Counted from the stretch's first letter, positions 19,141 to 45,195 are shown. The stretch: 64,000 nt of DNA from Gemmatimonadota bacterium (GCA_039588295.1 JBDHAB010000004.1:143006-207005), one strand, 5' to 3'. Made by a program: numbers and translations. The notes: generated from the sequence alone by a model not told the origin.

Positions 19141-19142
19141 AC

Positions 19143-19901: not shown

Positions 19902-20858
19902 ATGATGAGTAGAGCAACGAGCTTGATCCTCGCGTTGGCAGTGCTGGGTGCCTGTGCTGACGATGGGCAGCGAGGTGAGTTGGTGGGACTGGACGCCAAA
20001 GTTGCGCCCAGTGACGAGGAGAACTGGCTCCACCGCCAATCCGTCGCACGCGCCAGGATGGTCCGTCCGGGACATCTGACCTGGGCTGGTCCCAACCGCA
20101 GATTCCTATTGGTGACGGACCACTACCGGGGGGTTGTGTTTAAGTACCGGGTCAACCAGGGCGAACTGCTCCTGAAGCGGGAGTTCCAGTTCAACGCAGG
20201 CATCAGCGGCGTGGCCTGGGGTGCAAACCGCCTATTTGTCGCCAACACCACCACGGCATCGGTCGGAGTCTATCGGTCGTCCGGTACCTGGATGTACGAC
20301 CTCGGCGGTCCGGGCGCATTTGCGTATCCGACCGACATCGAGGTGGACGACGAGCGGGATCTGGTGTTCGTCTTGGACAACCGCAGACAGTCGATCTCGG
20401 TGTTCACCATCGACGGGGACCACAGGAATACGTGGGCTGCCTCGGCCCTGGGGATGGAGAACCCGGTTGCGATGGGTCTTGACCCCGTCCGAGGGGAACT
20501 CCTCGTCAGTGACTATGGCAACCTGGTGGGGTTCGGAGGCGGGGGAGCGGCCATCCATGTGTTTGACTACGACGGTAACCGGCGCAAGACGATCTCGGAC
20601 GAGTCGCTGTTCCCGCGGCCGCAGGGGATAGCGGTGGACGGCCAAGGGCGGATCCTGATGGTTGACGCGCTAGCCTGCCAGTTGATGGTGATTGACCGAG
20701 AATCGGGCGCCGTTCTCGCCACACACGGTGAGCCGGGCACGGAACCCGGCCAGATGCTGCTTCCTCTCGACGTCGCGGTTGACGCGAACGGCCGAGCCTT
20801 CGTCACCAACAATCGCCTGGGGCGGATCGAGCTGTTTGAGGTAGGAGGTGGATCGTGA
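19902..20858 (+). CDS. NHL-repeat beta-propeller lipoprotein
   Basis: Lipobox LGAC; repeats YPTDIEVD, NPVAMGLD, RPQGIAVD, LPLDVAVD. Confidence 0.85.
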   Translation: MMSRATSLILALAVLGACADDGQRGELVGLDAKVAPSDEENWLHRQSVARARMVRPGHLTWAGPNRRFLLVTDHYRGVVFKYRVNQGELLLKREFQFNAGISGVAWGANRLFVANTTTASVGVYRSSGTWMYDLGGPGAFAYPTDIEVDDERDLVFVLDNRRQSISVFTIDGDHRNTWAASALGMENPVAMGLDPVRGELLVSDYGNLVGFGGGGAAIHVFDYDGNRRKTISDESLFPRPQGIAVDGQGRILMVDALACQLMVIDRESGAVLATHGEPGTEPGQMLLPLDVAVDANGRAFVTNNRLGRIELFEVGGGS

Positions 20859-21502
20859 GGAAACGTCGATACGCACTGGTGTTCCTCGCTCTAGCGCTTG
20901 CGCCAGTGGTTGCGGTGGCCTTGCTCGAGGCCCGATCTACCACGGCCTTGCTCACGGGACACCTTGGATGCACCGGATATTGCCACCTTGCGCACGGTGG
21001 AGGTGGCCCCACGCTCACGCGCGAGGCTGCCTATGACCTGTTGTGTATGAGCTGCCACAACCCGGCGGCTCCGGTCGGCAACGCCCCACCCGCCGATTAC
21101 CACACCGAGGATCCCAACGACTCAAACGACGGGACGACGTACTCCTTCCAGGTGCAGTGCGTGGAGTGTCACCTAGACTCGCCGCACAGCAACGTGGTGA
21201 ATGCGTGGGGCGGAACGAACCTCAAGCTTGTCCGTGCATCGGTGACGAATCCGTCCAACAGCGTCTCCTACGATGTCCGCTTCGAGGCGCTCTCGGGGGA
21301 CTACTCATTCTGCGATGAGGAGGGCCCTGATACCGAGTGGGACAATCTCTGCGACATGTGCCACAGTGACATCTACGCGGGCCGACACCACAACGATCCG
21401 GTGGCGGGAGGGAATTGGGGCGACAGCAACCACCACCGGAGCGGATCAACCTGCACAGGGGGCAACTGCCACAATCACGACCGAGGCTTCCAACTCAGAT
21501 AG
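20855..21502 (+). CDS. Multiheme cytochrome c with about 5 hemes, including non-canonical CX3CH and CX4CH motifs
   Basis: Signal or anchor; CTGYCH, CMSCH, CVECH, CDMCH, CTGGNCH. Confidence 0.82.
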   Translation: MRKRRYALVFLALALAPVVAVALLEARSTTALLTGHLGCTGYCHLAHGGGGPTLTREAAYDLLCMSCHNPAAPVGNAPPADYHTEDPNDSNDGTTYSFQVQCVECHLDSPHSNVVNAWGGTNLKLVRASVTNPSNSVSYDVRFEALSGDYSFCDEEGPDTEWDNLCDMCHSDIYAGRHHNDPVAGGNWGDSNHHRSGSTCTGGNCHNHDRGFQLR

Positions 21503-21765
21503 CCTGTATGGGTTGGGGAGTACCCCCGGAGAGGTACCTTGCCGTGGGGACCAGCAGAGCGGCTCGGCTTCGGTCGGGCCGCTGTGGTTTGCGGGAGGAG
21601 GGAGACCGTCACGGCGTGGCTAGACATTGGATCGGCGCACCAATTGCGTAACCGCTTGACAGGCAATAGGCTAGAAGAGGCTCAGTGCCCATTCATGGCG
21701 CGTTGTTGTCGCCCCGCGGCCTTTGGGAAACGCCAGTCGCTTCATCGGAAAGAGGCAGCCTTGAG

Positions 21766-22752
21766 TTGAAGGTCCTCATTGCCATCCCGGCGTTCGACGA
21801 GGAGGCCACGCTCGGTCATGTCATCGGGTGCCTCCCGCGGGAGCTGCCCGGTGTCTCGTCAGTTGGTGTGCTCGTCGTGGACGACGGCTCGACCGACGGC
21901 ACCGCCGAGGATGCTCGGAAAGCCGGAGCCCGAGTCGTACGGCATCGTCGCCACCTCGGTCTCGGCGCTGCGTTCAACACAGCAGTCGCGGAGGGTTTGC
22001 GCCTCGGGGCCGACGTGCTGGTCACCATCGATGCCGACGGCCAGTTCGACCCCGCGCAGATCCCGGATCTGATCATGCCGATCGTGGACGGCGCCGCCGA
22101 CCTGGTGACCGGCAGTCGGTTCGTCGGTGGCCGGCGGCCATCCAGCATGCCCGCCGCTCGCTACTGGGGAAACCGGTTCTTTTCAGGGCTGCTCAGCCGA
22201 CTCCTGCAGGAGAAGCTGCAGGACGTGTCCTGCGGCTTCCGGGCGTACTCGCGGGAGGCGCTTTTCAACCTGAACCTGCTCGGCAAGCACACCTACACGC
22301 AGGAAGCGATCTTCGATCTGGTCTTCAAGGGGCTCAGGGTGGTGGAGGTACCGATTACGGTGCGCTACTTTGAGGCCCGTCAGTCGCGTGTGGCGGGGAG
22401 CCTGGTGAACTACGGGATCAAGGCTCTCAAGATCATCGCCCGCACTGCCCGGGACTTCAAACCGCTCAGGTTCTTCGGGGTGTTTGCGCTCGTTGTGCTC
22501 GCGGTTGGTGTGGGGCTCGACCTCTGGCTCCTGGCTTTCTTTCTTCGCACAGGGAACTTCTCACCGTACAAGTTCGTGGGCTTTGTGGGGACCGCCCTCA
22601 TCGTGGTCGCCATCCTAATCCTGGGCTTTGCGCTGCTCGCGGACATGCTAGATCGGCTCAGGGTCAATCAGGAGCGGGTGCTGTATCAGCAGCGCAAGAT
22701 GCTGTTCGGGGGCAAGCGCCACGATGATGGGGGAGGCGACGGGACGTCGTGA
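21766..22752 (+). CDS. GT2 glycosyltransferase, polyprenol-phosphate sugar synthase (DPM1/GtrB)-like, with C-terminal TMs
   Basis: IPAFDEE, VVDDGSTDGT, IDADGQFD, GSRF, DVSCGFRAY; TTG start inferred. Confidence 0.9.
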   Translation: MKVLIAIPAFDEEATLGHVIGCLPRELPGVSSVGVLVVDDGSTDGTAEDARKAGARVVRHRRHLGLGAAFNTAVAEGLRLGADVLVTIDADGQFDPAQIPDLIMPIVDGAADLVTGSRFVGGRRPSSMPAARYWGNRFFSGLLSRLLQEKLQDVSCGFRAYSREALFNLNLLGKHTYTQEAIFDLVFKGLRVVEVPITVRYFEARQSRVAGSLVNYGIKALKIIARTARDFKPLRFFGVFALVVLAVGVGLDLWLLAFFLRTGNFSPYKFVGFVGTALIVVAILILGFALLADMLDRLRVNQERVLYQQRKMLFGGKRHDDGGGDGTS

Positions 22753-23993
22753 CCTCCCGCCGCCGACTTCGGGTACTGATCTCCACGAGCACGTTCCCGA
22801 TCCATACCGACGACGGTGTGCCGCGTTTCATCTTCGATCTTGCGCGGTATCTCCAGGCTCACGCTGACGTGACGGTATTGGCTCCGGACGGTCCGGGAGC
22901 AAGACGATCAGAGGACATGGAAGGCGTCGATGTTCGCCGTTTCACCTATGCCGTCCCCCGCTCGAGCCAGCGCCTGGCGCTCGGACAGGGTATGTGGGAC
23001 AATCTCCGGGAATCCTGGCTCGCCAAAGCGCAGATTCCCTCGTTCATGGTGGCCCAGCTCCGGGCAACGAAGCGACTGATCCGCGAGAATCGGATCGATG
23101 TGGTAAATGCCCATTGGCTCGTGCCGTGCGGGCTCACAGCGGCCTATGCCGTTGGGCGGCATCCGAGCACGCGGTTGGTGCTGCACGTTCACGCGGGCGA
23201 CGTGTACTTTCTCAACCGCCTGCCCGGTGGTACTGCGATCGCTCGCTACGTCGCGCGCCGCTGCGCCGGAGTCCTTGCCGACGGCAGCCACGTGCGCGAT
23301 TCGCTGGACGCGCTGATCGGGTGGCCGAGCGATGCAACGCTTCGGCCGATGGGTGTCGACCTCGGCGTGTTCGGGCGCGATTCGGCAGACCAGGCAGGTG
23401 GGTTGGAGCGTAGCGAATTCGACGATGGGTTCCTGCTCTTCTTTGGCCGCTTCTCGGAAAAGAAGGGTGCGGTCTACCTGGTACGTGCACTCCCACGGAT
23501 TCTCGAGGTGCAGCCGGGACTGGGACTGGTCATGATCGGTGACGGTCCCGAGCGCCACCGCGTCGAGGAGGAGGTCGCCAGACTCGATGTCGCCAGCGCA
23601 GTGCGGTTTCTGGGCCGGAGGTCACATGCAGAGATTGCGTGGTATCTCCACCACTGCCGGGTTGCGGTCGTGCCGTCGATAATCGATCGGTACGGAGAAA
23701 CCGAAGGCATGCCGACAGTCGTGGTGGAAGCACTAGCCGCAGGCGCGTTGGTGGTGGGAACCGCCGTCGACGGTATACCGGACGTACTGCGGCACGCCGA
23801 GAACGGCTGGCTGTGTCGGGAGAAGGACCCGCAGGATCTCGCCGCAAAGATCCTCCAGGCGCTGCGCAGTCGCCCCGATTCGCCGGTAGGTCGCGGAGCG
23901 GCGGCGACGGCGGAGCGTTTTGGATGGGGGTCTGTCGCGGAGGATTACGTTGCACATCTCGAGCGGGCCGTCACTGGAGCAAAGGGGGAGTGA
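22749..23993 (+). CDS. GT4 (GT-B) glycosyltransferase
   Basis: NAHW, GRFSEKKG, ETEGMPTVVVEALAAG. Confidence 0.92.
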   Translation: MTSRRRLRVLISTSTFPIHTDDGVPRFIFDLARYLQAHADVTVLAPDGPGARRSEDMEGVDVRRFTYAVPRSSQRLALGQGMWDNLRESWLAKAQIPSFMVAQLRATKRLIRENRIDVVNAHWLVPCGLTAAYAVGRHPSTRLVLHVHAGDVYFLNRLPGGTAIARYVARRCAGVLADGSHVRDSLDALIGWPSDATLRPMGVDLGVFGRDSADQAGGLERSEFDDGFLLFFGRFSEKKGAVYLVRALPRILEVQPGLGLVMIGDGPERHRVEEEVARLDVASAVRFLGRRSHAEIAWYLHHCRVAVVPSIIDRYGETEGMPTVVVEALAAGALVVGTAVDGIPDVLRHAENGWLCREKDPQDLAAKILQALRSRPDSPVGRGAAATAERFGWGSVAEDYVAHLERAVTGAKGE

Positions 23994-25906
23994 TGGGCCG
24001 TAGACTCCACTGGATGGTACTGGGTGGCGGGGTCGTGCTCACTATGCTCGCCTATCGCCCTGCGCTCGACGTTGGGTTCGTCTTCGATGACCGGATCAAC
24101 ATCGAGCAAGCCTCGGGTGTGCACTGGACCGAGGTATCCCGGGCAGCGGTTCGGGCGCTCAGGGACTCCACACTGATTCCGCGTCGGGCCGTTGCGAACG
24201 CGTCCTTCGCGCTCAACCACCTCGCCGGCGGCCTCGAGCCGCGGGGTTATCATCTCGTCAACATCCTGACTCATCTCGCCGTGGGCCTTGCGCTTGTGTG
24301 GGTCGCGCTCCTCTACCTGCGGGCGGTGTTCCCCGATCGGGAGCGGGAGCGGCTACTCCTTGCGGCCGTTCTGTCGGCCGTGCTGTTCCTGGTCCATCCG
24401 CTCAATTCGCAGGCGGTGACGTACGTCGTCCAGCGGATGGCGTCGCTGGCGGCGCTGTTTTCGCTGCTCGCGCTCGGTGCCTACTGGGTCGGGCGCACCC
24501 GTCCGGGCGGCCGCGGGATCCCGTGGTTCGGCGCGGCCGCGGTTGCCTGGCTGCTCGCACTTGGCAGCAAGGAGAACGCGATCCTGCTGCCGCTCGTCGT
24601 GCTCACCTACGAGTGGTGCTTCAAGCGTGCCGAGTGGCGTGACCGGTGGCGCGGGATGGCGCCCGGTCATCGCTGGGGCGCCGGCATCGCCGGACTCGTG
24701 CTGCTGGCGGTCGCCGCAGTCGCGATCCTCGGGTATGCCGGCGGGAATCCGGTCCAGTGGGCGGGCACGTTCCAGTATCGCGACTACACGCCTGTGGAGC
24801 GGGTGTTGACCCAGGCCAGGGTGCAGGTGTTCTACCTGACGCTCCTCGTGTGGCCGGCACCGGGACGCCTGAGCCTGGATCACGACTTCGCGGTGTCCCG
24901 CGGTCTCCTCGCGCCTCCGACGACGGTGCTGGCATGCCTGTTCTGGCTCGTGGTGCTTGCTGCAGGACTGGTTCTGGCCGTGCGACGGCCGCGCTACGGT
25001 TTTCCCCTGCTGGCGTACCTGGAGTGGCATCTCGTCGAAGCGGGGCCGGTGAACCTTGAGCTGGTGTTCGAGCACCGCATGTACTTGCCGATGACGATGC
25101 TGGCACTCGCGGCCGCGGTGGGTCTCGCCGAAGTGTCGAACCGCTACCGACGTGTGAGCGTGGTTGCCGCGCTGCTGCTCGCACTGCCGCTCGCGTGGGG
25201 CACGTGGCAGCGGAATCTCGTCTGGGCCGATCCGGAGGTGTTCATCTGGGACACCGCGCGCAAGGCGCCGAGCAAGGTCAGGCCATGGTACAACCTCGGC
25301 ACACTACTGCTCAAGTGGGATCGGCCCGAGGAGGCGGTCGAGCCACTGGAGCGTGCGGTGCAGGCTGATTCGACCGACTGGCGGGCGACCGATCAGCTGG
25401 GGCTCGCGTATCTGGGGGTGGGGCGCACGGACGATGCGCTGGCCACGTTCCGACGTGCTGCGGCGCTCGAGCCGGACGAGGTCGAGCCGGAGCTGCACAT
25501 CGGGCGGGCACTCGAGCTGCGGGGATCGACGCTAGAGGCGTCGCGGCACTTGCTGGATGTCGGCACGCGTCGCGGCTTGGCGGGGGACGTCATGATGGCT
25601 ATGCTGGCGCTGCAGCGGGCCGTCGAGCTCGACTCGACGAGCTCTGCGGCGCATAACGCGCTGGGGAACGCGTATCTGCTCGCGGGCCGACCGCTCGACG
25701 CACTCCCCCAGTACCGCCAGGCGGTATCCCTGGACTCCACCAATGTCGAAGCGGTGTACAACGCTGGCATGACGATGGCGGATCACGGTGATCCCGTGGA
25801 GGCGCTGGTGCTGCTCGAGCGGTTCGTCGAGTTGGCACCGGCGCGGTTCGCCTCGCAGGTCGCGGCCGTGCGTAACAGAGTCCGGGATCTGAGGGGTGAG
25901 TTGTGA
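23993..25906 (+). CDS. TMTC-like GT-C glycosyltransferase with C-terminal TPRs (paralog 1)
   Basis: GFVFDD, YHLVNILTH, VHPLNSQAVTYVVQR, SKENA, EHRMYLP, RNLVW, then several TPRs. Confidence 0.85.
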   Translation: MGRRLHWMVLGGGVVLTMLAYRPALDVGFVFDDRINIEQASGVHWTEVSRAAVRALRDSTLIPRRAVANASFALNHLAGGLEPRGYHLVNILTHLAVGLALVWVALLYLRAVFPDRERERLLLAAVLSAVLFLVHPLNSQAVTYVVQRMASLAALFSLLALGAYWVGRTRPGGRGIPWFGAAAVAWLLALGSKENAILLPLVVLTYEWCFKRAEWRDRWRGMAPGHRWGAGIAGLVLLAVAAVAILGYAGGNPVQWAGTFQYRDYTPVERVLTQARVQVFYLTLLVWPAPGRLSLDHDFAVSRGLLAPPTTVLACLFWLVVLAAGLVLAVRRPRYGFPLLAYLEWHLVEAGPVNLELVFEHRMYLPMTMLALAAAVGLAEVSNRYRRVSVVAALLLALPLAWGTWQRNLVWADPEVFIWDTARKAPSKVRPWYNLGTLLLKWDRPEEAVEPLERAVQADSTDWRATDQLGLAYLGVGRTDDALATFRRAAALEPDEVEPELHIGRALELRGSTLEASRHLLDVGTRRGLAGDVMMAMLALQRAVELDSTSSAAHNALGNAYLLAGRPLDALPQYRQAVSLDSTNVEAVYNAGMTMADHGDPVEALVLLERFVELAPARFASQVAAVRNRVRDLRGEL

Positions 25907-27564
25907 CCGGCAAGAGGATGCTGCCGATCGCGGTGCTTGCGGCCGGTGTGCTTCTCGCGGGGCTCGCCTACCTGCCGGCGTTGGACGCGGATTTCGTTTT
26001 CGACGACCCGCCCAACATCGTGGCGCAGTCCGGGATTCACTGGACCGAGTTTTCGGTAGAGGCGGTGCGGGGGCTCAGGGACTCGACGTTGATCCCGCGG
26101 CGGGTGGTGGCGAACACGACGTTCGCGTTGAACCACCTCGTGGGTGGGCTGGACCCCTGGGGGTATCACCTCGTCAACATCCTCGTCCATCTCGCGGTCG
26201 GGCTGGCCTTGGCCTGGGTGGCATTTCTGTATCTGCGGGCGGTGCTGCCGGGGAAGGACCGGGATGCCCTGGCGCTGGCGGTGGTGGTGCCGGTGGTGGT
26301 GTTCCTGGTGCATCCGCTCAACACGCAGGCGGTGAGCTACGTGGTACAGCGGATGGCGTCGTTGGTGGCGCTGTTCTGCCTGCTGGCATTTGGGGCGTAT
26401 CTGGTGGGGCGGAACAAGCCGATACAGCGCGGTAGATGGCCGTGGTATGTCGCAGCGGTGGTGCTGTGGGGTCTGGCGTTGGGGAGCAAGGAGAATGCGG
26501 TGCTCCTGCCGCTGGTGGTGGTGATCTATGAGGTGTGTTTCCACCGTCAGACGTGGCGCGAGTGGTGGGCAGCTCAGAGCCCTGCCGCCCGCGGACGGCT
26601 GGTGGGTGTGATCGGTGTCGTGCTACTGGCCGCAGTGGGTTTCATTGCGGTGTACGCCGGGACGAGGCCGATTGCGTTCACCCGGGAGTGGGCGCAGCGG
26701 GACTTCAACGGGTGGGAGAGGATCCTGACACAGTTGCGGGTGCAGGTGTTTTACCTGGGGCTACTGCTGTGGCCGGCGCCGGGTCGGTTGAACCTGGACC
26801 ATGACTTCAGCGTGTCGCGGGGATTGGCCGAGCCGGCATCGACACTCCTGGCGGGGCTCTTCTGGGTGGCGGCTGTTGTAGGAGCGCTGGCGCTGGCACG
26901 GCGGCGCCCGCGGTATGGTTTCCCCGTGCTGGCCTACCTGACATGGCATCTCGTGGAGGCGGGCCCACTGAACCTGGAGCTGGTGTTCGAGCACCGGATG
27001 TACCTGCCGCTCACCATGCTGGTCTTGCTGCTAGCGGTGGCCTTTGCTGATCTGGGCGACCGCAGGCGCTGGCCGGCTGTCATTGCGGCCTTGGTGGTCG
27101 TCCTCCCGCTGAGCTGGGCCACATCGACGCGCAATCAGGTGTGGGCGGATCCGGTCGCGCTCCATTGGGACACGGCCCACAAGTCCCCCAACAAGTTCCG
27201 GCCGTGGTACAACTTGGGCACGCTGCTCGGTGCCAACGGGCAAGTGCAGGAGGCGCTCGAGCCACTCGAGCGAGCCGTGTCGCTCCGCCCTGATTATTCG
27301 CCTGCGCACAACCAGCTCGGCAACGTCTATTACTTCCTGGATCGTAAGGGGGAGGCGCTCACAGAGTATCGAGCGGCGGTGCGCCTGAACGCACAGAACG
27401 CCGAGGCGGTGTACAACGTTGGTATGCTGCTGGATGAACAGGGGAGGTTTGTTGAGGCGGTCCCCTACTACCGGCGGTTCGTAGAGATCGCCCCGGCGGA
27501 ACTGGCCCCACGCGCTAATGAAGTGCGGCGGCGGCTAGGCGCGTCAGGTGACGTCCGCAGGTAG
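25903..27564 (+). CDS. TMTC-like GT-C glycosyltransferase with C-terminal TPRs (paralog 2)
   Basis: FVFDD, YHLVNILVH, VHPLNTQAV, SKENA, EHRMYLP; closely similar to the preceding gene but with fewer TPRs. Confidence 0.85.
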   Translation: MTGKRMLPIAVLAAGVLLAGLAYLPALDADFVFDDPPNIVAQSGIHWTEFSVEAVRGLRDSTLIPRRVVANTTFALNHLVGGLDPWGYHLVNILVHLAVGLALAWVAFLYLRAVLPGKDRDALALAVVVPVVVFLVHPLNTQAVSYVVQRMASLVALFCLLAFGAYLVGRNKPIQRGRWPWYVAAVVLWGLALGSKENAVLLPLVVVIYEVCFHRQTWREWWAAQSPAARGRLVGVIGVVLLAAVGFIAVYAGTRPIAFTREWAQRDFNGWERILTQLRVQVFYLGLLLWPAPGRLNLDHDFSVSRGLAEPASTLLAGLFWVAAVVGALALARRRPRYGFPVLAYLTWHLVEAGPLNLELVFEHRMYLPLTMLVLLLAVAFADLGDRRRWPAVIAALVVVLPLSWATSTRNQVWADPVALHWDTAHKSPNKFRPWYNLGTLLGANGQVQEALEPLERAVSLRPDYSPAHNQLGNVYYFLDRKGEALTEYRAAVRLNAQNAEAVYNVGMLLDEQGRFVEAVPYYRRFVEIAPAELAPRANEVRRRLGASGDVRR

Positions 27565-27738
27565 GGATTGCAGGCAAGTGCGTCCTGCCAGAGCCAGCCA
27601 CAGTCCTGGATGTCCCCGGTCTCGTTATCCAGATCTCCTCACGTGCCCGGACGGGAGTCAACTGGGAGATCTATGCGGGTTGTTGCAGTGAGTGCGCTGT
27701 TCACGGCCAGATCCGTGTTACACGTTCCTTCAGTCACT

Positions 27739-28656
27739 ATGCGCTATTGGCGTCTCATCGTCGCCGTAGCTGCCCTCACGATTCTGGTGATGTATGTGGG
27801 ACACGGAGAATTCGTTCGTGTGCTGTTGCGGACCCGGCCGACGTGGCTGCTGCTGTACCTGGTCGGCCTTGGAGCACTACCGCTCCTGTATGGCTGCCAG
27901 ATCTGGGTCTCCCTCCGTCTCCTCGGTCACGATTTGCCCGTTTCCAGCGCCCTGTCCGGCAGTGTCAACGCATGGGCCGTAGGACAGATCACACCCGCGC
28001 GTGCGGGTGATCTGAGTCTCGCGCACTTCCTTGGTGCGAAGGCACCAGCGCCTGTCGTCGTCAGCTTGGTCGTGGTGGATAAGGCCCTCAGCTTGGCGTT
28101 GCTGGCCTTCATCGCCGCTGTTGCCGGTGTCACACTTGAGTTCAGCCTGGCAACATCCGTGATAATCGCTTCAGCGATTCTGCTCGGAGTGCTGGGTATT
28201 GGGAGCGTGCTCTTCCTGGCGATCCTGAGGATACCACGCGCTTGGCGATTATTGCCCCAGTTCGCCCGTCGCTTCTCCGAGCAGGCGCGACAAGCGCTCC
28301 TGGCCGTCACTGCGAGGTGGTCGCTGATCGCGTGGAACCTCGTGGCCATCCTGCTCAAGTGGACTGTTGTGTTCACGTTGATTTGGGTACTGTTCCGATC
28401 TCTCGACTACTATCCTCACGTTAGGTTTGTCACAGCTGCCTCAGCGATTGGGCGGTTACTTGCCCTAGTCCCTGTCACCGTTGGCGGTATCGGGCTCAAG
28501 GAGCCGATTCAAATCGTGATCTATCAGCTTGATGGCATTCCCGACGAAGCGGTTGTGGCCGTAAGCACACTCGGTGCGTCCCTTGGTTTCTTGATGACAG
28601 CCTTTCTGCCGCTGCTCATAGCGAGAGGGTTCGGTTGGCGATCGGAGGTGTCGTGA
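27739..28656 (+). CDS. Lysylphosphatidylglycerol-synthase TM domain / flippase-like membrane protein
   Basis: Polytopic; TPARAGD, VVDK, PVTVGGIGLKE. Confidence 0.8.
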   Translation: MRYWRLIVAVAALTILVMYVGHGEFVRVLLRTRPTWLLLYLVGLGALPLLYGCQIWVSLRLLGHDLPVSSALSGSVNAWAVGQITPARAGDLSLAHFLGAKAPAPVVVSLVVVDKALSLALLAFIAAVAGVTLEFSLATSVIIASAILLGVLGIGSVLFLAILRIPRAWRLLPQFARRFSEQARQALLAVTARWSLIAWNLVAILLKWTVVFTLIWVLFRSLDYYPHVRFVTAASAIGRLLALVPVTVGGIGLKEPIQIVIYQLDGIPDEAVVAVSTLGASLGFLMTAFLPLLIARGFGWRSEVS

Positions 28657-32073: not shown

Positions 32074-32082
32074 TGCCCGAAC

Positions 32083-33633: not shown

Positions 33634-33634
33634 G

Positions 33635-36804: not shown

Positions 36805-37458
36805 ATGAAGAGAACGCTTGTTTCAACGATGGTGGCGCTCGCAATGCCTGTTTTCGCGGCGTCGGCTTCGCCCCTGTGGAATGCGACCCTGTCGACGACG
36901 CCGTGGACGAGCTTGGCGGCCAGCCCGCACGACTTCACGGCGTCCAATCCGGATCCGACCTACGCCGCGATTGCCGCGACGAACAAGTGTGAGTCGTGTC
37001 ACCACCCTCACGAAGCGATTGGCGCCGCCTACGGTCCGCTGTGGAACCACAGCCTCAATTCAGGCGCCAACGCGTATACGATGTACGGTACCACCATCGC
37101 TGGCAACGACCCCACCAACAATGCGGTCGGCAACGCATCGCTCCGGTGCTTGGGCTGCCATGACGGCACGCTTCCGATCGATGCCTACGGCGGCAGCGCG
37201 GGCACCCCGACGCTCACGGTCGGCCTGGAGAAGTTCAGCAACCTGGCCGACGTGACAACCGATCTGACGGACGATCACCCGGTGGGGTACAACATTCCTC
37301 TTGGTACGGCGGGCTGGCAGGCCAATCTCACCGGTGCTTCTGCCACGGCCTACAGCGGCGACGTGGAGTGTGCCAGCTGCCACGATCCGCACGGCACGAC
37401 GTACGGCGTGAAGTTTCTGCGGGCTGCGGACTTCTGCACGGACTGCCACGACAAGTAG
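36805..37458 (+). CDS. Secreted tetraheme cytochrome c, OmcE-like (nanowire-forming family)
   Basis: Strong RBS GGAGGAGGAGG; SPHDF, CESCHHPH, PLWNH, YTMY, SLRCLGCHDG, DLTDDHPVG, VECASCHDPH, FLR, CTDCHDK. This motif order matches what I recall for Geobacter OmcE. Confidence 0.8.
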   Translation: MKRTLVSTMVALAMPVFAASASPLWNATLSTTPWTSLAASPHDFTASNPDPTYAAIAATNKCESCHHPHEAIGAAYGPLWNHSLNSGANAYTMYGTTIAGNDPTNNAVGNASLRCLGCHDGTLPIDAYGGSAGTPTLTVGLEKFSNLADVTTDLTDDHPVGYNIPLGTAGWQANLTGASATAYSGDVECASCHDPHGTTYGVKFLRAADFCTDCHDK

Positions 37459-37513
37459 GCAGGTCTGCCCTGGCACCGAAGCCGGGGAATGAGTACAATC
37501 GAGATGCGACGAT

Positions 37514-37542
37514 GGGGGTGGCCGAGGTTGGCCACCTTCTTC
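37514..37542 (+). terminator. Hairpin/terminator after the OmcE-like gene
   Basis: GGTGGCC / GGCCACC stem followed by TTCTTC. Confidence 0.5.
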
Positions 37543-37597
37543 GTATGGAGAATTGGCGAAGGCAGGGGATCGTCAGATGCTCGGGAGAAGCTATAGC

Positions 37598-38656
37598 ATG
37601 ATTCGGTTCGGTGGTCCGGTTCTGGCGATGGTGGTGGCTACGGCGTGTGCCAGCGGCGGCACCATGGAATACATCTTCTATCCGCCCCCGCCAGACACGG
37701 CCCGCTTCCAATTCCTCAGGGGCATCTCCTCGCTCGATGACGTCAAAGGCTCCGGGCGGTCCTTATTCGCGGCCATTGTGGGTGAAGAGAGGAAGGCGAG
37801 CCCGATCCGCATCATCCGGCCGTACGGGGTCTCTGTCGACAGTGGCCTGATTTACGTCTGCGACGTCAATCTGCCCGGCGTCTCGATCATCGATCTGGCC
37901 GAGAAGTCGATGCGGCAGGTCATGAGCCCGACCCTGCCGCGACCCAGTGCCTGTGTGGTGGATCGGGCGACCGGTCAGCTCTACATCGCCGATTCCGAGC
38001 GACAGGAGATAGTGATCATAGGGACGGACGGCATCTACGCCGGCGTCGTGGGAGACAGCCTGCGCGGGCCCGGCGGTGTCTACGTGACCGATGACCGGGT
38101 GTGGGTTACCGATATCGGAACGAAGCAGGTTCGCGTGTACGACAAGGCAACGCGCCAGCATCTGCGCGCATTCCCGGATCGGGGCCTCGAAAGAGACGAT
38201 CCGGCTCGGCTCCAGTGGCCCATGAGCCTGTCTGTGCATGGAGACCGCGTGTACGTCACCGACCAGTTCGCTGCGCACGTGAACGTCTATTCGACGGACG
38301 GGGCGTACGTCAGAACGATCGGGCGACGCGGGGTGAGTTTCGGGGCCTTCGACCTGCCCAAGGGTGTCGTCGTGGATCCCGCAGGCCGGGTCTATGTGGC
38401 GGACTTTCAGTTTCACCACGTCCAGGTGTTCGACGAGGAAGGGAGCGTGCTCACCTACTTCGGGGGTGGGGGTCGGGGGCGACCCGGATACCTGGGCGGG
38501 CCCATCGGCCTTGCCATCGACGACGTCAACCTTGAGTACTTTCGGGAGTACGTGCACCCGGACTTCGACCTGAAGTTTCTTATTTACGTGACGAATCAGG
38601 TCGGTGCCCAGAAGCTCTCGGTCTACGGGTTCGTCGAGCCGAAAGCGGGACGCTAG
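37598..38656 (+). CDS. NHL-repeat beta-propeller lipoprotein
   Basis: Lipobox TAC; FYPPPPDTARFQFL; repeats RPYGVSVD, WPMSL, LPKGVVVD, GPIGLAID. Confidence 0.88.
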   Translation: MIRFGGPVLAMVVATACASGGTMEYIFYPPPPDTARFQFLRGISSLDDVKGSGRSLFAAIVGEERKASPIRIIRPYGVSVDSGLIYVCDVNLPGVSIIDLAEKSMRQVMSPTLPRPSACVVDRATGQLYIADSERQEIVIIGTDGIYAGVVGDSLRGPGGVYVTDDRVWVTDIGTKQVRVYDKATRQHLRAFPDRGLERDDPARLQWPMSLSVHGDRVYVTDQFAAHVNVYSTDGAYVRTIGRRGVSFGAFDLPKGVVVDPAGRVYVADFQFHHVQVFDEEGSVLTYFGGGGRGRPGYLGGPIGLAIDDVNLEYFREYVHPDFDLKFLIYVTNQVGAQKLSVYGFVEPKAGR

Positions 38657-38899
38657 ACCCTAGCGCCGACCTGCGGCGGATGTTGCACGTCGGCACTCGG
38701 GCCATCGATCCGAAGCACGTTCGGCTGCGGGCCCGAATGGCGCCGGTAAAGGTCACCCCAGCCACGTGGCGTGGATCGACCCAGGTGCCATCCTCGAACT
38801 CCCAGCCGTTGGCTCCAGCAGTCTCCACCGCATTGACGACTCATAACTGACCGTCTCGCGCAAGCAGCGGAAACACGGCCTGGCCAGGAGGGCCGGACG

Positions 38900-40432
38900 T
38901 CATTGATTCGGCCGGTTCGCACTCATGGCTTCGAGGGCTGCCGCGGCCGTTCTATTCTGCCGATCGAGGCGGAGGACACGACGGTACCATCCTTCGGCCT
39001 CCCCCGTGTTCCCGCGGCCGGCAGCGCGACTTGCGAGCCGCAGGTACTGCATCACGTACACCTGGGTGTTCAGCACGCCCGCGCGTCTGTGCTCGTCGGC
39101 CTTTGCGGGTTGTCCGAGGCGCTCGTACTCCCGAATCAGCGCCACGCGCAGGGCGTTGGACCGTGGGCTCACCCGCACGGCCGTCTCGAATACCGTGACG
39201 TTATCGCGCCACACCGCGTTCCGGCGCGCCGTGAGCACCGACAAGGTGGTGAGCAGGACGACCGTCACGACCAGCGAGATGGGGACGCTTCGGAGTGCGC
39301 GACCGTGGACGCCTGCGGAGGCAACTGCCCGGACTGCCGCATACGCAAGGCCCAGCATCGGGACGTAGAGAAACCGTTCGCCGATCATTGCTCCCCTGAG
39401 TGGAACGATGTTCATGACGGGGAGGAGGGTAATAAAGAACCAGGCAATTCCAAATGCCACATGCGTGTTCCGGCGCATGTTGTATGCGGCGATGAACACC
39501 ACAATCGCGATGACGCCAAGCGCACCGAGAGCGCCGGGGTCGAGATAGGATTCCGGAATGCCGACCTCATGGCGAACGGATTGGCGCACGGGAATCAGGA
39601 GAAGTCGGAGGTACTTTGCCACGACTGCCGCCTGCATCAGCATCGTTCTCGTGAAGGTGACACCCATCCACTCACCGCTCGCCAGCCCGCCGAGGAGGTG
39701 ACTGCGCCACCAGACGAACGCCGCCGCAATGGCGACGAACCCGAGGAGATACGCAGAGTATCCTCGGTGCAGTGTGAATCCGTTCCTTCGGCGCCGGAGC
39801 AGCAAGTCGGACAGCACCACGAGCAGTGGCAGCGTGATGGCCATCTCCTTGGCCAGCAGTGCGAGGCCGAAGCACACATACACGGCCGCCACGGCACCTG
39901 GGTGCCATGAGCCGCGCCTTCGTAGCCCTAAGTGCAGGTAGAGGGACAGCAAGACCAGGGACGCGGAGAGAAGGTCTGCGAATCCGGTCACATTGGCTAC
40001 TGCCTCTGTCATGATCGGATGGGACGCAAAGACCGCTGCCACGATCATCCCCGCCCCGCGCGTGCCGGACAACAGGGTGAACACGGCGTAGGTCAGGAGG
40101 ACGTTCACCACATGCACGAGACCATTGAGCGCGTGATACGCCAAAGGACTCAGTCCGAAGGCGTGATGTACGATCGCAAACACCAGCGTCCGGAGCGGCC
40201 GATAGTATGCCATGCCCTCGGCAGCCACACCCGTGCGGTAGTCGGTGAAGAACTGCGGCAGGTTCCCGAGATCGCGGACGGCAGGATTGTCGACGAGAAC
40301 GGGAAAGTCGTCCCAGACGAAGCCGTTCAGCAGCGTATTCGCGTAGATCAGGACGGTTCCGAGCACGAGCGCGACGGGGACTACCGGAGGGTCCTTCCGC
40401 GTCGCCGGGCCGCTGTTACCTGCCATCGTCAT
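38900..40432 (-). CDS. TMTC-like GT-C glycosyltransferase with short TPR tail (paralog 3)
   Basis: NGFVWDD, YYRPL, HPIMTEAV, AKEMA, ERFLYVP, RNAVW. Confidence 0.85.
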   Translation of the reverse strand: MTMAGNSGPATRKDPPVVPVALVLGTVLIYANTLLNGFVWDDFPVLVDNPAVRDLGNLPQFFTDYRTGVAAEGMAYYRPLRTLVFAIVHHAFGLSPLAYHALNGLVHVVNVLLTYAVFTLLSGTRGAGMIVAAVFASHPIMTEAVANVTGFADLLSASLVLLSLYLHLGLRRRGSWHPGAVAAVYVCFGLALLAKEMAITLPLLVVLSDLLLRRRRNGFTLHRGYSAYLLGFVAIAAAFVWWRSHLLGGLASGEWMGVTFTRTMLMQAAVVAKYLRLLLIPVRQSVRHEVGIPESYLDPGALGALGVIAIVVFIAAYNMRRNTHVAFGIAWFFITLLPVMNIVPLRGAMIGERFLYVPMLGLAYAAVRAVASAGVHGRALRSVPISLVVTVVLLTTLSVLTARRNAVWRDNVTVFETAVRVSPRSNALRVALIREYERLGQPAKADEHRRAGVLNTQVYVMQYLRLASRAAGRGNTGEAEGWYRRVLRLDRQNRTAAAALEAMSANRPNQ

Positions 40433-40519
40433 CGGTGTTCACTGCCCACGGCTGGTCCGTGCCTGTGTGCTCCGTGAACGACCGGTGTTGTCACTTGCAG
40501 CGCCTCGAGAACCGGCATA

Positions 40520-42340
40520 CTACTGCGAGAGCTTGGCGCGGAGGAGCGCGATCTGCGCAGCGAACCGCTGCGGAGCAGTCTCCATGAACCGGCGGTAGAG
40601 AACCCGAGCCTCCTCTTCACGTCCCGCCTGTTCGTACGCTCTGCCGAGATTGTAGAGCGCCTCCGGAAACAGCGGGTCGATCTCGAGCGCCCGCTGCCAC
40701 AAGACAGTCGCCTCAGTGCGGTTCCCTCGTCGGTCTAGAAGATTGGCCAGGTTATTGAGGGCGGTCGGGTGGCGCGGACTCAATTCCACGGCACGTCGAT
40801 AATGGTATTCCGCTCGATCGAAGTCCCCCAGGCGTGCGTACGCGACGCCGAGGCTCAGGTGCGCCCCCTGGGACGATGGGGCCAACTCCACCGCCCGGGA
40901 CAGATGACGCCGGGCCTCTTTGGGGGCGCCGAGTGCGAGAGCGACGTCGCCCAGGTTCAGCCACGCGCGACTGTATTCCGGGAAGACCGTGGCGGCATAC
41001 CGAGCATGTCGGCGGGCTCCCTCATAATCCCCGACATCGAAGTACGCCGTGGAGAGCGAGGCTTGCACGAACGCGCTCCCCGGCTGCACGGTCGCAGCGC
41101 TGGTGAACAAGGCCATCGCATCGTGCCAGTCGCTCGTTCGCAACCAGGTTCGCCCCGCATAGAGAACGATGACAGCCGCGACTGCCACACGTCCCAACGC
41201 CCTTCCGCGCGCTCCGGACAGCCGGACCAGGGCATCCAATCCCACGATTGCCGCGATCGCGAGGCCCGCCGTAGGGAAGTACAGGAACCGCTCGGCAAAC
41301 AATGATGCGACCGGCCGCACCGCGTTCACACCAAGGAGCGCGACGTGTGACAGCACCATACTCAATCCAACGAACGCCACGCGCGAGCGCCGGGCCAGCC
41401 ACGAGAGCGTCCACAAGGAGACGAGCAGGACGGCGCTCCCGAGAATGACGCGCGCGTCAAGGAAACTCCGAGCGATTGGGATGGCCTCGTAGGAGTAGTC
41501 TGCCGAGAGCGGTACCGGGTAGATCCACAGCTGGGCAGCCTGCGCCAGAAGCGCCATTGCAGTGATGAACCGAGGACCGAGGGGCTCCGCAATCAGGGGG
41601 TTGAACACGTACTCGATGGGTGACTGGCGCAGCCCCCCGAATCCGGCCGCAAGCCCGGCCACATAGACAACAGCAGTCAGCAGATACACACCGAATCGGC
41701 CCCACTGCGGCTTCGGCTTCCTGGTGGCCTCGAACAGCAGCAGCACACCAAGCAGCGCAACGGCGCCTTCCTTACAGAGCAATGCGAGCCCGAACAGGAT
41801 GACACCGGTCACGTGTGCCCATGATGCTCGAATCGCCCCGCTGCCGGGCGAGCGGACGTAGAGCACGAGAGCGGCAAGAGAAAACAGCGCTGCCAGGAGC
41901 TCGCTTCGCGCCGCGCCCCAGGCCACGGCTTCGCTGGTCACCGGATGGACTGCGAAGACGGCGGCACCACAGGCGGCAAGTGTCGCCCGGCCTGTGAGTG
42001 CGGTGACGAGCAGCATTACCAGGACGGCGTTTGCCCAATGGAGCAGGATGTTGCCTAGGTGATACCCGAACGGGCTGAGGCCGCCCAGCGCGTAGTTGAC
42101 GGCGTAGGACAGCGTAATGAGCGGTCGATAGTGCGTTCGGGAGGATGCCGACGTGGACTCCCAGAACCCGGATGTGAACATCTCAGGGAGGTTGGCCAGG
42201 TTCCGGATGACCGGGTTCTGCTGGATAAACGGGATGTCGTCGACCACAAAGCCGTTGGAGAGTGCGTTCACGTATGCGACGAAGATCAAGGCCCCCAGCA
42301 GGAGCGCGAATGCTGCAAGCCGTCTTGTCTCCCCCGACAT
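40520..42340 (-). CDS. TMTC-like GT-C glycosyltransferase with C-terminal TPRs (paralog 4)
   Basis: NGFVVDD, HYRPL, VHPVTSEAV, CKEGA, LSADYS, AERFLYFP, multiple TPRs; start uncertain. Confidence 0.87.
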   Translation of the reverse strand: MSGETRRLAAFALLLGALIFVAYVNALSNGFVVDDIPFIQQNPVIRNLANLPEMFTSGFWESTSASSRTHYRPLITLSYAVNYALGGLSPFGYHLGNILLHWANAVLVMLLVTALTGRATLAACGAAVFAVHPVTSEAVAWGAARSELLAALFSLAALVLYVRSPGSGAIRASWAHVTGVILFGLALLCKEGAVALLGVLLLFEATRKPKPQWGRFGVYLLTAVVYVAGLAAGFGGLRQSPIEYVFNPLIAEPLGPRFITAMALLAQAAQLWIYPVPLSADYSYEAIPIARSFLDARVILGSAVLLVSLWTLSWLARRSRVAFVGLSMVLSHVALLGVNAVRPVASLFAERFLYFPTAGLAIAAIVGLDALVRLSGARGRALGRVAVAAVIVLYAGRTWLRTSDWHDAMALFTSAATVQPGSAFVQASLSTAYFDVGDYEGARRHARYAATVFPEYSRAWLNLGDVALALGAPKEARRHLSRAVELAPSSQGAHLSLGVAYARLGDFDRAEYHYRRAVELSPRHPTALNNLANLLDRRGNRTEATVLWQRALEIDPLFPEALYNLGRAYEQAGREEEARVLYRRFMETAPQRFAAQIALLRAKLSQ

Positions 42341-42519
42341 CGGGCCCGAAGGGATCTTCGTAGGACATTCCTTGAGTCTTTCCATGCTCCGGACTCCCGT
42401 CAGATCACCCGAGCGGCTTGTCGACAAAGAACGTCTCGGTCACACCGATCCCGCCAACCACCGCGGCGCGCGCGAGAAGATACGACAGGTAGAGGTATCC
42501 GAGTCGCCGGTTTCCGAGC

Positions 42520-42794
42520 AGGGGATCTTCACAATCCTCACGAAGTTCAACACCAATTCCTGGGTCACCACGGGCCTTACGGACGATCACCCGGTCGGGT
42601 ACGATCTGCCGAACGACGTTAATGAGTACAGCCAAACGCCCTCGACGGCTAAGTTGTACGGTGGCGCCATAGAGTGCGCAAGCTGTCACGACCCACACGG
42701 CACTACCTACGGCGTGAAGTTCCTGCGGGCTCAGGATTTCTGCTCGGACTGCCACAACAAGCAGGTCAAGTTGTGCGCCCGCGCGGCGGGTTGA
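42520..42794 (+). pseudogene. 5'-truncated copy of the OmcE-like cytochrome (last two hemes)
   Basis: KF...VTTGLTDDHPVGY...IECASCHDPHGTTYGVKFLRAQDFCSDCHNK matches the 36805-37458 C-terminus; no signal peptide or first two hemes; stop codon lost. Confidence 0.8.
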
Positions 42795-42804
42795 GATCGC
42801 GGAG

Positions 42805-42841
42805 CCGGGGGTGGCCAAAGATTGCCACCCCCGGTTTTATT
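42805..42841 (+). terminator. Intrinsic terminator
   Basis: 11-bp stem CCGGGGGTGGC / GCCACCCCCGG followed by TTTTATT. Confidence 0.75.
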
Positions 42842-42870
42842 GTGGTCGAGACCTCGTACGGAGTTGTGGA

Positions 42871-43494
42871 GTGTCGATTCGAATTCGCCTTCACTTGTTG
42901 GCTCTGACCTGCTCGGTGTGTGCTCTTGGAGCGTGTGCGAGCAGTGGTTCGATTGAGTATGTCTTCTTCCCGCCTCCGCCGGACACGGTGCGGCTTCAGT
43001 ATTTGGGTAAGATCAGTCCACTTGACGATCGCAAGGAGGTGGGGCGTTCCGTATTTGCCATGCTTGGGGGTGGGGAGGAGGAACAGAGCCCAATCCGCCT
43101 CCTTCGCCAGTACGGCGTGACGACCGATACCGGAACCATCCACGCCTGCGACGTGAACCTGCCTGGCGTCCAGGCGATCGATCTGGGGGAGCGAGATATC
43201 CGCCAGATCAAGAGCCCCACCATGATGCAGCCGAGCATTCGCACCGTGGATCCCGTCACCGACGAGCTCTACGTGGTAGAGGACAATCGGGACGAGATCG
43301 TCGTGCTTGGGGTGGATGGTATGTTCAAGAGTGTCGTGCCGATGGACGTGTGGATCGACTACGCCAATCTGGATCTTTATCGGGATTGGGTGCACCCGGA
43401 TTTCACGCTGAAGCACCCAGTGCTGGTTGCGAACCAACTCAGCCCTGATAAGTTGGCCATTTGCGGGTTCGTGGAACCAAGACAGGGCCGGTAA
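42871..43494 (+). pseudogene. Internally deleted paralog of the NHL lipoprotein at 37598
   Basis: ACASSGSIEYVFFPPPPDT, CDVNLPGV and VHPDFTLK...GFVEP match; about 150 central residues are missing in frame. Confidence 0.75.
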
Positions 43495-45195
43495 TTGGCG
43501 TTACAGGCGCTACGGAAGTCGCTCCTGACATCGGAGCTAGGGCCACTCGCTCTTCTCATTGCGGTCAACCCGGTGGTCTACTCGATCAACCGGAGCGCGG
43601 CGTACTTTCCGCCGGATTCCATCCTCTACGCCGTTATGGCCAGGGACTTCCTAGACGGTCTCCCGCTGCATGTATCGGGTTGGGGTGGGGCCGGCGGTGG
43701 AGTCATCTTGCCACCACTCTACCCAGCCGTGGTCGCACTAATGTCGATCGCGAGCCCGAATCGGTTGGCAGTGGCGGAGTATGTGAGCGCCATCAGCATC
43801 ATCCTGGCTGCCATTCCCCTGTATCTCACGGCTCGCTCATACGCCGGGAGAATTCCCAGCCTCATCGGAGTCGGTGCCCTCCAGTGCATGGGGTTCTACT
43901 TCCACACGGCTCTTCAACCGCTCACAGAGGGCCTGTTCATACTGGTCTCAGCGATTGCTGCCTACGTGTTGGTCAGGACGGCGAGGAGAGGGACGAAGTT
44001 GAGGTGGGTCCTGATATCCGGTGTCTGCGCCGCGCTCGTCTACTTCACCCGCCAGATAGGCCTGCTGTTTCTCCCATGCGCGGTTCTGTTCTTCCTCCTT
44101 CCGGGAACAGAGTCCTTTCGAAGTCGAGTGAAGCGACGAGTCACAGCGGCAGTGGTGGTGGTGGGTGGTTTTCTGGTTCTTGCTGGACCGTATGCGCTGA
44201 CGCTTTACTTGCAGACTGGTCAACTCCCCCTCAAGCAGCGTTTCAGTACTCGATCGCAGGCGGTGCAACCGAGCGCTGAAGACCTCCGCACAATTGAGCG
44301 TATCCGCGCGGAGACAAGCGCCGGCTACGAAGGCACGTACGGTGAGCGCCGAAGGCTCCGAAAGCTGAACGAGGCCCGATCGGCTATGCTCTCTTCGGTT
44401 GTTGCAGGTGACGGCAACCAAAGGAGCCTCGTTTCGTCGGTTTTCAAGACGCTCATGTCCCCGCGAAGTGTGATTCAACGGATCGGCTCCAACCTGCGGC
44501 ATGTGGTGACCGCCGCCGGTCCGGGGCTTTCCCTCCTGTTTTGCATGGCCATGCTCTTTCCACTCACGCGTACGACGGATGAGCGCCGACGGTGGGTCTG
44601 GAGTGTGCCGTGGTTGTGGGTGGTTGGATATGTCTTTGGGCTTTCTCTGGTATCGACCACAGTTGACCGCTACGTCCTTGTAATCATCCCATTCCTGTTC
44701 CTGCAGTCGGTGCTTTTCCTCACAACTGTCGGGGGTTGGCTGCCTGCGGTGCGTACCCGTCATGGGCGGCTGCCCATTGACGGAGGGCTCGCCACGATCG
44801 TGTTCGTGATCGGGTTAGCGTCGGCGCCGTCTTTGTTTGCAGACGTTTCCCGCTATCCGAAGCTGTTGGAGTCGGAGTTGCCAATGGGTGCGCTGCGTAA
44901 CGTTGTTGGCAGGGGTGACCCCATGTTCACCCTCTACCCGGCAGATGCCTACTTCTTGGGTGGAATCTTCCGCGTCCAGCCGGACGCACGCACGGGAGAC
45001 TTGGCTGCGTTTGCTCGTCGCACGGGTGTCAAGTGGCTGGTCGTTCGCCGCACCCCGCAGATCATGCAGGAGTTGCAGTACTACTCCGAATCCTCGTGGT
45101 ACCTCGATCCAGGCGTGGTCAGTGACACCAACTTGGTCTTCATGGGCTCGAGCGAGGATGACGTGTTACACCTTTATCGCGTTCGCGATCAGTAG
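43495..45195 (+). CDS. GT-C fold (ArnT/PMT-like) membrane glycosyltransferase
   Basis: PDSILY, PPLYP, LTEGLF, TRQIG, RYVLVIIP; polytopic membrane protein. Confidence 0.7.
   Translation: MALQALRKSLLTSELGPLALLIAVNPVVYSINRSAAYFPPDSILYAVMARDFLDGLPLHVSGWGGAGGGVILPPLYPAVVALMSIASPNRLAVAEYVSAISIILAAIPLYLTARSYAGRIPSLIGVGALQCMGFYFHTALQPLTEGLFILVSAIAAYVLVRTARRGTKLRWVLISGVCAALVYFTRQIGLLFLPCAVLFFLLPGTESFRSRVKRRVTAAVVVVGGFLVLAGPYALTLYLQTGQLPLKQRFSTRSQAVQPSAEDLRTIERIRAETSAGYEGTYGERRRLRKLNEARSAMLSSVVAGDGNQRSLVSSVFKTLMSPRSVIQRIGSNLRHVVTAAGPGLSLLFCMAMLFPLTRTTDERRRWVWSVPWLWVVGYVFGLSLVSTTVDRYVLVIIPFLFLQSVLFLTTVGGWLPAVRTRHGRLPIDGGLATIVFVIGLASAPSLFADVSRYPKLLESELPMGALRNVVGRGDPMFTLYPADAYFLGGIFRVQPDARTGDLAAFARRTGVKWLVVRRTPQIMQELQYYSESSWYLDPGVVSDTNLVFMGSSEDDVLHLYRVRDQ

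Follow-up and report, generated by a model that had tools for sequence, protein, structure and literature searches.

The 64,000-nucleotide stretch analysed here, called the window, comes from the genome of a Gemmatimonadota bacterium (GCA_039588295.1, JBDHAB010000004.1:143006-207005; G000:C4:143006-207005 in our own numbering of genomes and contigs) and carries, between positions 19902 and 45195, a gene cluster of the OmcE type, whose gene at 36805-37458 encodes a member of the OmcE family of tetraheme cytochromes. Two blocks of sugar genes, A and B, are inserted at the conserved chromosomal site that holds the omcE core, and both are optional. Taking the genes together, the odds slightly favor a function in which these blocks would place a sugar, delivered on a lipid carrier, on proteins of the exported cytochrome machinery, the OmcE subunit being the most likely target. 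The pairing of omcE with glycosylation genes, presented as new in an initial annotation of this DNA, was already described for Geobacter and Geomonas (PMC13712944); the present analysis extends it to another phylum, shows that within one genus the blocks are optional and vary between species, and points to a candidate transferase family.

OmcE and its partner proteins

Compared with the sequences of the PDB, the OmcE-like protein gave a single significant match, OmcE of G. sulfurreducens (7TFS, E=1.4e-11), and a model built without hemes (pLDDT 70) retrieved the same entry as its sole Foldseek match (E=4.1e-3, probability 1.00, TM-score 0.43/0.45). In the family alignment (80 rows), H66, H119, H193 and H215 as well as H69, H158 and H196 are found in 80/80 and H42 in 75/80; all eight heme-ligand histidines, four of the CxxCH motifs and four distal, are kept in the window protein, and the OmcE-like tetraheme first annotated is thus upheld. 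The family profile was derived from 80 of 120 listed homologues, chosen for four hemes and a length of 165-270 residues. This profile also matches open frames of 550-970 residues in many omcE clusters (G401-G445, G447-G545), which are larger proteins containing an OmcE-like domain.

The genes for OmcE, both NHL lipoproteins, the hexaheme cytochrome and the barrel are all intact, and the two NHL proteins each combine the Pfam domain with a lipobox, as had been annotated. The 634-residue protein is probably an outer-membrane beta-barrel, judging from its signal peptide, the lack of a transmembrane (TM) helix, a C-terminal Phe and a beta-alternation of 0.155 against 0.073±0.021 (0 of 300 shuffles as high). 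A Pfam scan of this protein matched no family and its best named lead in the Atlas was Porin_4 at 0.90, on 33% of that cluster, so that the barrel of the initial annotation keeps its signal peptide, alternation and terminal residue and lacks a Pfam family. The small multiheme cytochrome corresponds to the N-terminal third of a 14-heme protein that stands at the same place in other relatives, and similar short forms occur in G323 and G369.

Sugar genes of the two blocks

Four proteins of the island join a glycosyltransferase (GT) domain of the GT-C type to tetratricopeptide repeats (TPR) or a TPR-like tail, in the manner of TMTC and TfpW. They are mutually alignable and each carries DD, KE and an E(H)RxY element; only one (protein 4) exceeds the Pfam cut-off for TMTC_DUF1736 (31 bits, cut-off 27), and a Pfam scan of protein 3 gave zero matches, TPR included. 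Among the motifs described in PMC7801869, M1, M4 and M7 are found in all four and M2 (YRP) in two, M3 and M5 are clear in one and M6 is not evident. A structure model was made for one of the five GT-Cs (protein 2), and as modelled this protein has a GT-C fold with an acidic DD motif in the first outer loop: residues 1-426 align with STT3 at Z 20.8 (319 residues, root-mean-square deviation 4.2), with ArnT at Z 19.2 and with Pmt4 at Z 19.0, Pmt1/2 and AglB also falling within Z 17-21. The Foldseek matches listed for the full model were all to TPR proteins and the GT-C match came from re-alignment; a GT-C profile found no match among PDB sequences. With these results the four TMTC-like genes of the initial annotation are borne out, as is the fifth GT-C, which falls in the PMT_2/ArnT clusters of the Atlas and could not be aligned with the profile made for TMTC (probability 12%).

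The block A enzyme that had been called DPM1-like belongs to the GT2 family; the AglJ, PpgS and Dol-P-hexose synthase models rank first for it, yet each stays below its cut-off (NCBIfam AglJ, the best, 135 bits against 325; PpgS 97 bits). The flippase-like gene, the two GT4s and the three tailoring enzymes first proposed (radical S-adenosylmethionine (SAM) protein, pyruvyl transferase, methyltransferase) were all recovered by their Pfam families. Neither a pilin gene nor one for Wzy, WaaL or an STT3-family protein was seen among the open reading frames (ORFs) of the island.

Block B also contains a decayed second copy of omcE, reduced to its C-terminal two hemes (64% identical over 67 aa), and of an NHL gene that lacks an internal part (about 50% identical). 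This pair suggests that block B may have brought along a portion of an omcE cluster related to the present one. All features are collected in Table 1.

Table 1. Features of the omcE island and its flanks, with positions in the window
Feature	Position	Strand	Evidence
ccmE-like, ccmF, ccmH, double zinc-ribbon membrane protein	16085..19703	+	Pfam CcmF_C/Cytochrom_C_asm, CcmH, DZR; ccmE label from sequence inspection, not a family scan
NHL beta-propeller lipoprotein 1 (core)	19902..20858	+	Pfam NHL 42 bits; lipobox LGAC; near omcE in 20/22 relatives
Small multiheme cytochrome (core)	20855..21502	+	3 CxxCH plus CX3CH and CX4CH
GT2, AglJ/PpgS-like polyprenyl-phosphate sugar synthase, candidate (block A)	21685..22752, start may be 21766	+	Pfam Glycos_transf_2
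GT4 glycosyltransferase (block A)	22749..23993	+	Pfam Glycos_transf_1
GT-C+TPR protein 1, TMTC/TfpW-like (block A)	23993..25906	+	TPR Pfams; DD, SKE, EHRMY motifs; 64% identical to next gene
GT-C+TPR protein 2, TMTC/TfpW-like (block A)	25903..27564	+	AF2 model pLDDT 96.4, GT-C fold
LPG_synthase_TM (UPF0104) flippase-like membrane protein (block A, low GC)	27673..28656	+	PF03706 70.8 bits; TIGR00374 above cut-off; GC 0.59
Radical SAM protein (block A, low GC)	28653..29708	+	Pfam Radical_SAM; GC 0.57
Polysaccharide pyruvyl transferase-like protein (block A, low GC)	29705..30952	+	Pfam PS_pyruv_trans; CsaB model below cut-off
GT4 glycosyltransferase downstream of cytochrome operon	30922..32073	-	Pfam; 45% to GT4 near omcE in G112
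SAM methyltransferase, co-directional with barrel and cytochromes	32083..32811	-	Pfam Methyltransf_11; 85.8% orthologue at same place in G149
7-heme cytochrome gene, frameshifted (core)	32858..33633	-	76-bp gap at 33453/33452; homologues near omcE in 14/22 relatives
Probable outer-membrane beta-barrel, 634 aa (core)	33635..35539	-	Signal peptide, beta-alternation, C-terminal Phe; 20/22 relatives
Hexaheme c7-type lipoprotein cytochrome (core)	35536..36426	-	Pfam Cytochrome_C7; TIGR04257 above cut-off; lipobox LAGC; 21/22 relatives
OmcE-family tetraheme cytochrome, predicted filament subunit (core)	36805..37458	+	4 CxxCH; 7TFS match; conserved His
NHL beta-propeller lipoprotein 2 (core)	37577..38656	+	Pfam NHL 68 bits; lipobox ATAC; 22/22 relatives
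GT-C protein 3, short TPR-like tail, TMTC-like (block B)	38900..40432	-	DD, YRP, AKE, ERFLY motifs
GT-C+TPR protein 4, TMTC-like (block B)	40520..42340, start may be 42385	-	TMTC_DUF1736 and TPRs; DD, YRP, RSE, CKE, DY, ERFLY
Decayed second copy of omcE and NHL gene (block B)	42549..43494	+	omcE C-terminal half; NHL with internal deletion
PMT_2/ArnT-type GT-C without TPR (block B, low GC)	43495..45195	+	Pfam PMT_2 45 bits; Atlas PMT_2 clusters 0.99
ABC (ATP-binding cassette) permease, ATPase, transglutaminase-like gene	45422-49463		Right flank of omcE site, conserved in 9/22 relatives

Relatives, linkage and competing explanations

The OmcE profile matched 27 of 401 Gemmatimonadota genomes at E<=1e-8, and 23 of these, the source genome included, carry a full-length gene at E<1e-40; they span six families. 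In the 22 relatives the core recurs near omcE (NHL genes in 20-22, hexaheme in 21, barrel in 20, 7-heme in 14, small or 14-heme cytochrome in 7); among the sugar genes, TMTC-like genes are near omcE in 3, GT4 in 2 and the methyltransferase in 1, and GT2, flippase-like, radical SAM, pyruvyl transferase and PMT_2 genes in none. In same-genus G112, one contig reads ccmFH-NHL-cytochrome followed by GT2 (75%), GT4 (54%), TMTC (54%) and a 12-TM gene labelled Wzx-like by sequence inspection, and a short contig with omcE reads barrel-TMTC-GT4. The full arrangement is therefore seen in 2/23 omcE genomes, both of one genus. Tailoring genes vary, with Wzx and an asparagine synthase-like gene (AsnB) in G149, Wzx in G112, and UPF0104, radical SAM and pyruvyl transferase genes in the window; since the set differs between species of one genus, a sugar coat would be species-specific. 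The omcE of the window is 36-38% identical to those of same-genus G109 and G176, whereas ccmF and the permease are 83-85% identical, indicating a rapid turnover of the cassette itself, which agrees with PMC12977616.

Linkage was measured with a TMTC profile of 13 GT-C domains without TPRs, four candidates being scored per phylum genome. In 3/22 Gemmatimonadota genomes a TMTC-like gene is found no more than 25 kb from an omcE-like gene (0.47 expected under uniform placement); the same holds for at least 24/63 Desulfuromonadia genomes (6.55 expected under uniform placement, the matches listed covering 150 of 315 rows for TMTC and 150 of 155 for omcE) and for 4/44 genomes of a mixed-phylum sample (1.67 expected; 45 of 78 cross-phylum loci taken to genome level). 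Co-occurrence above chance, which the initial annotation had proposed to look for, was thus present in all three samples; because the OmcE profile matches larger partners and the sample consists of related genomes, many of them in fragments, these values are enrichments and not P values. In Desulfuromonadia a TMTC-like gene is present in 50/63 omcE-positive genomes versus 14/38 omcE-negative ones, and among 11 loci of that class, picked because they were linked, 6 have the order omcE-barrel-GT2-TMTC, often continuing with a second GT2, GT4s, Wzx and YfhO genes. An obligate link is ruled out, TMTC-like genes being within 10 kb of omcE in 3/78 cross-phylum loci and linked in 3/22 relatives in the phylum.

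A number of observations weigh against glycosylation of the cytochrome machinery by these blocks. The glycan, its acceptor and the filament are predictions. The Ser/Thr content of OmcE is 19.4% compared with 20.1±3.3% in the family; this rules out the enrichment looked for as an acceptor hint and gives no support for OmcE as the glycan acceptor. TMTC-like genes occur in 215/401 phylum genomes, comprising 17/22 omcE relatives and also 197/378 genomes without omcE. None of these sugar families was found nearby in 10 of the 13 well-assembled relatives (13/22, with at least 14 kb on both sides of omcE), and in G109 and G176 a bare core of about 10 kb runs from the zinc-ribbon gene to the ABC permease without sugar genes. 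In G149 the methyltransferase (85.8%) and GT4 are followed by a Wzx flippase gene, AsnB and more GT4 without TMTC, a set that looks like ordinary polysaccharide genes. Among the 20 top-scoring TMTC loci of the phylum (not a random draw), 12 are type IV pilus clusters, with pil names given by sequence inspection; 4 have a 5-heme lipoprotein cytochrome as neighbour, 1 is the G112 island and 3 are neither. In a quick tree of 36 domains, the four TMTC-like proteins of the window fall in three lineages, apart from the omcE-linked clade of Desulfuromonadia, and no single omcE-specific TMTC clade was seen. Of the mixed-phylum links, 3 of 4 helped to build the TMTC profile, and with related genomes the linkage excess is not a statistic of independent events. 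The frameshifted 7-heme gene, discussed below, counts on the same side. That the glycosylation is "dedicated", as first claimed, is not supported, given TMTC-like genes mostly in genomes without omcE, linked copies that do not form one clade and the relatives without sugar genes.

Two further TMTC-like loci lie elsewhere in the source genome. In L080 (G000:C42:24000-38000) a TMTC-like gene, a GT2 and two other membrane proteins without Pfam match lie inside a type IV pilus cluster, a layout that recurs in 12/20 of the sampled phylum loci. In L079 (G000:C37:22000-27642) a DUF1736-positive TMTC-like gene has as neighbours a gene of the DUF1207 family and one for a 5-heme lipoprotein cytochrome that contains collagen-like repeats; the neighbours are the same in G109, G149, G259 and G279, and an orthologue of this TMTC-like gene adjoins omcE in G063 and G232.

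It is possible, though we consider it unlikely, that the omcE-adjacent site is an insertion hot spot and that the sugar genes are passengers serving other envelope acceptors (lipopolysaccharide, surface polysaccharide or unrelated exported proteins). The absence of the blocks from most relatives would fit this, as would the low GC of parts of blocks A and B (0.57-0.60, with 0.64-0.71 at third codon positions, against 0.64 for the genome), the G149 block without TMTC and the modelled GT-C, which resembles the lipid A enzyme ArnT (Z 19.2) no less closely than it does protein transferases (19.0-20.8). The subfamily of the block A TMTC pair is also rare (3/401 phylum genomes, one of the two other carriers being without omcE), and G279 carries an orthologue of the pair with no multiheme gene nearby. 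Mere passengers, however, would not lead one to expect that the order omcE-barrel-GT2-TMTC recurs in Desulfuromonadia, that omcE-TMTC linkage exceeds random placement in all three samples or that in both the window and G149 the methyltransferase and GT4 genes come after the cytochrome operon and share its orientation, and the presence of glycosylation clusters has been matched to density on OmcE (PMC13712944).

Improbable, on the whole, is the alternative that there is no long filament and that the sugar genes serve what remains, either a short cell-anchored porin-cytochrome conduit or a decaying cluster. It draws on the decayed omcE/NHL copy and on the 7-heme gene, which lacks 76 bases of its same-genus orthologue at 33453/33452, with heme 2 lost and the frame shifted. 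The three further multiheme cytochromes of the initial annotation are accordingly all present with this one not intact, and the cytochrome that was said to run into methyltransferase-GT4 does so co-directionally in this frameshifted form. The gene may be a real pseudogene or an assembly error, as public contigs end at 33443 and 33459 and none bridges the junction. The modest agreement of the heme-free model with 7TFS and a barrel with no demonstrable homology to Desulfuromonadia barrels (phmmer E 0.08-0.6) would also suit a conduit; on the other hand, omcE, the two NHL genes and those for the hexaheme and the barrel are intact, the eight heme ligands are all kept, and the gene set, with NHL lipoproteins and multihemes present, fits the criteria given in PMC13712944 for nanowire-capable clusters.

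Genome setting, known systems and significance

The source genome is of 4.5 Mb and 96% complete, and near-identical fragments are present in two marine sediment runs, both from one study. The ccmEFH region is the conserved left flank, outside the variable island, and ccmF and ccmH are near omcE in 7/22 phylum relatives. These two genes are single-copy and form the sole heme-lyase set of a genome with 25 ORFs of at least three CxxCH motifs, 13 of them on the contig of the window; a dedicated heme maturation is thereby ruled out, and the claim that one locus matures the filament is not supported. In locus L001 omcE is 69% identical and the ABC permease and transglutaminase flank is shared with the window. 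A second large cytochrome region (G000:C4:115400-144900, which reaches into the window at 438-1872) contains, by sequence inspection, about nine multiheme ORFs with 8-21 CxxCH each, membrane genes that resemble those of cytochrome b/Rieske and NrfD proteins, and the two genes of a two-component system. Rfam found four tRNAs and no other family in the window, the tRNA-Thr, Tyr, Gly, Thr cluster lying at the contig end (63360-63805).

Among the closest known systems is the omcE cluster of Geobacter and Geomonas. Its minimal form consists of OmcE with a pair of multihemes, a pair of beta-propeller lipoproteins and one large barrel; in the commoner form a further 15-70 genes follow, which encode TPR proteins, exporters, methyltransferases, enzymes of sugar modification and glycosyltransferases of the GT2, GT4 and GT39 families (PMC13712944). 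The window resembles it in OmcE, the lipoproteins, multiheme partners, a large probable barrel and adjoining heme-maturation genes, and in GT2, GT4, GT39-like, methyltransferase, exporter and TPR genes. It differs in a Ccm (ccmEFH) instead of a resB/ccsB flank, in sugar genes placed as two blocks inside the core instead of one downstream block, in the barrel (634 aa) and in the c7 hexaheme partner. Extra density was seen on OmcE of G. sulfurreducens and none for D. soudanensis, which is without glycosylation genes (PMC13712944), and the extensive glycosylation of OmcE has been spoken of as insulation (PMC9473688). Gemmatimonadota is not among the five phyla for which PMC13712944 lists omcE clusters, nor does "Gemmatimonad" occur in its main text, although its supplements might list such genomes; the initial view of a lineage not known for nanowires agrees with this. 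PMC13264449, which mentions both nanowires and Gemmatimonadota, states that nanowires were not investigated there. In the literature searched, with most subscription papers outside the search, nothing was found that names TMTC-like enzymes as OmcE transferases or reports OmcE clusters in Gemmatimonadota.

The GT-C+TPR proteins have two known counterparts. TfpW, the pilin arabinosyltransferase of Pseudomonas aeruginosa Pa5196/PA7, has 646 aa, 11 TM segments, a GT-C domain with DDX and a periplasmic TPR, and is needed for pilin O-glycosylation (bioRxiv 10.1101/2020.04.19.049825). The window proteins share its size, multi-TM GT-C domain with DD(X) and C-terminal periplasmic TPR, and 3/4 have a TfpW-like Y-X6-P element; homology to TfpW is suggested by architecture, not by alignment. 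TfpW-like relatives in Gemmatimonadota sit in pilus clusters, including the copy on contig C42 of the source genome, whereas the window genes adjoin cytochrome genes and not pilA, and no arabinose pathway genes were seen. Animal TMTC1-4 (GT105), O-mannosyltransferases with DUF1736 and TPR, share the GT-C+TPR layout and M1/M4/M7, and DUF1736 exceeds the cut-off in one window protein and the C37 paralogue; unlike these, the window proteins are bacterial, M3/M5 have diverged in 3/4 and a mannose donor is not implied (PMC7801869, where prokaryotic TMTC homologues are noted as uncharacterised).

In the haloarchaeal Agl pathway of S-layer glycosylation, AglJ adds the first sugar on Dol-P. The window GT2 has AglJ as its best NCBIfam model, and a tailored donor on a lipid monophosphate is suggested by the presence of GT, methyltransferase and flippase-like genes; on the other side, the AglJ score stays under its cut-off and the locus contains no AglB/STT3-family gene.

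If the blocks do glycosylate the exported cytochromes, the steps would be as follows, by analogy with the Geobacter system and with the functions of the gene families. The housekeeping Ccm lyase would attach hemes; the c7 hexaheme, 7-heme and small multiheme cytochromes would feed electrons; and the NHL lipoproteins and barrel would export and anchor OmcE, which would polymerise. The AglJ-like GT2 would load a first sugar on polyprenyl monophosphate, the two GT4s would extend it, the methyltransferase, pyruvyl transferase and radical SAM enzyme would decorate it, and the UPF0104 protein would flip the lipid-linked sugar. The GT-C+TPR enzymes would then transfer it to Ser/Thr in the periplasm, as TfpW, of the same architecture, does for Pseudomonas pilin. 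A species-specific sugar coat would plausibly mask a surface target from phage.

More tentatively, and with the balance tilting against it, TMTC/TfpW-like GT-C+TPR proteins could be the glycosyltransferases of OmcE nanowires in general, one module having been recruited repeatedly to pilus and nanowire loci, with swappable cassettes giving glycan "serotypes", also in Gemmatimonadota. The papers examined do not name the enzyme that modifies Geobacter OmcE filaments, and the GT-C+TPR gene that stands second behind the barrel in omcE clusters of Desulfuromonadia offers one candidate for it that could be deleted in a laboratory strain. Since glycans have been proposed as insulation, and their absence goes with bundling of OmcE (PMC13712944), the identity of the transferase bears on both conduction and packing of nanowires. 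With 23/401 sampled genomes, Gemmatimonadota can be added to the phyla in which omcE gene sets are complete, and its same-genus genomes with and without sugar blocks provide a natural comparison.

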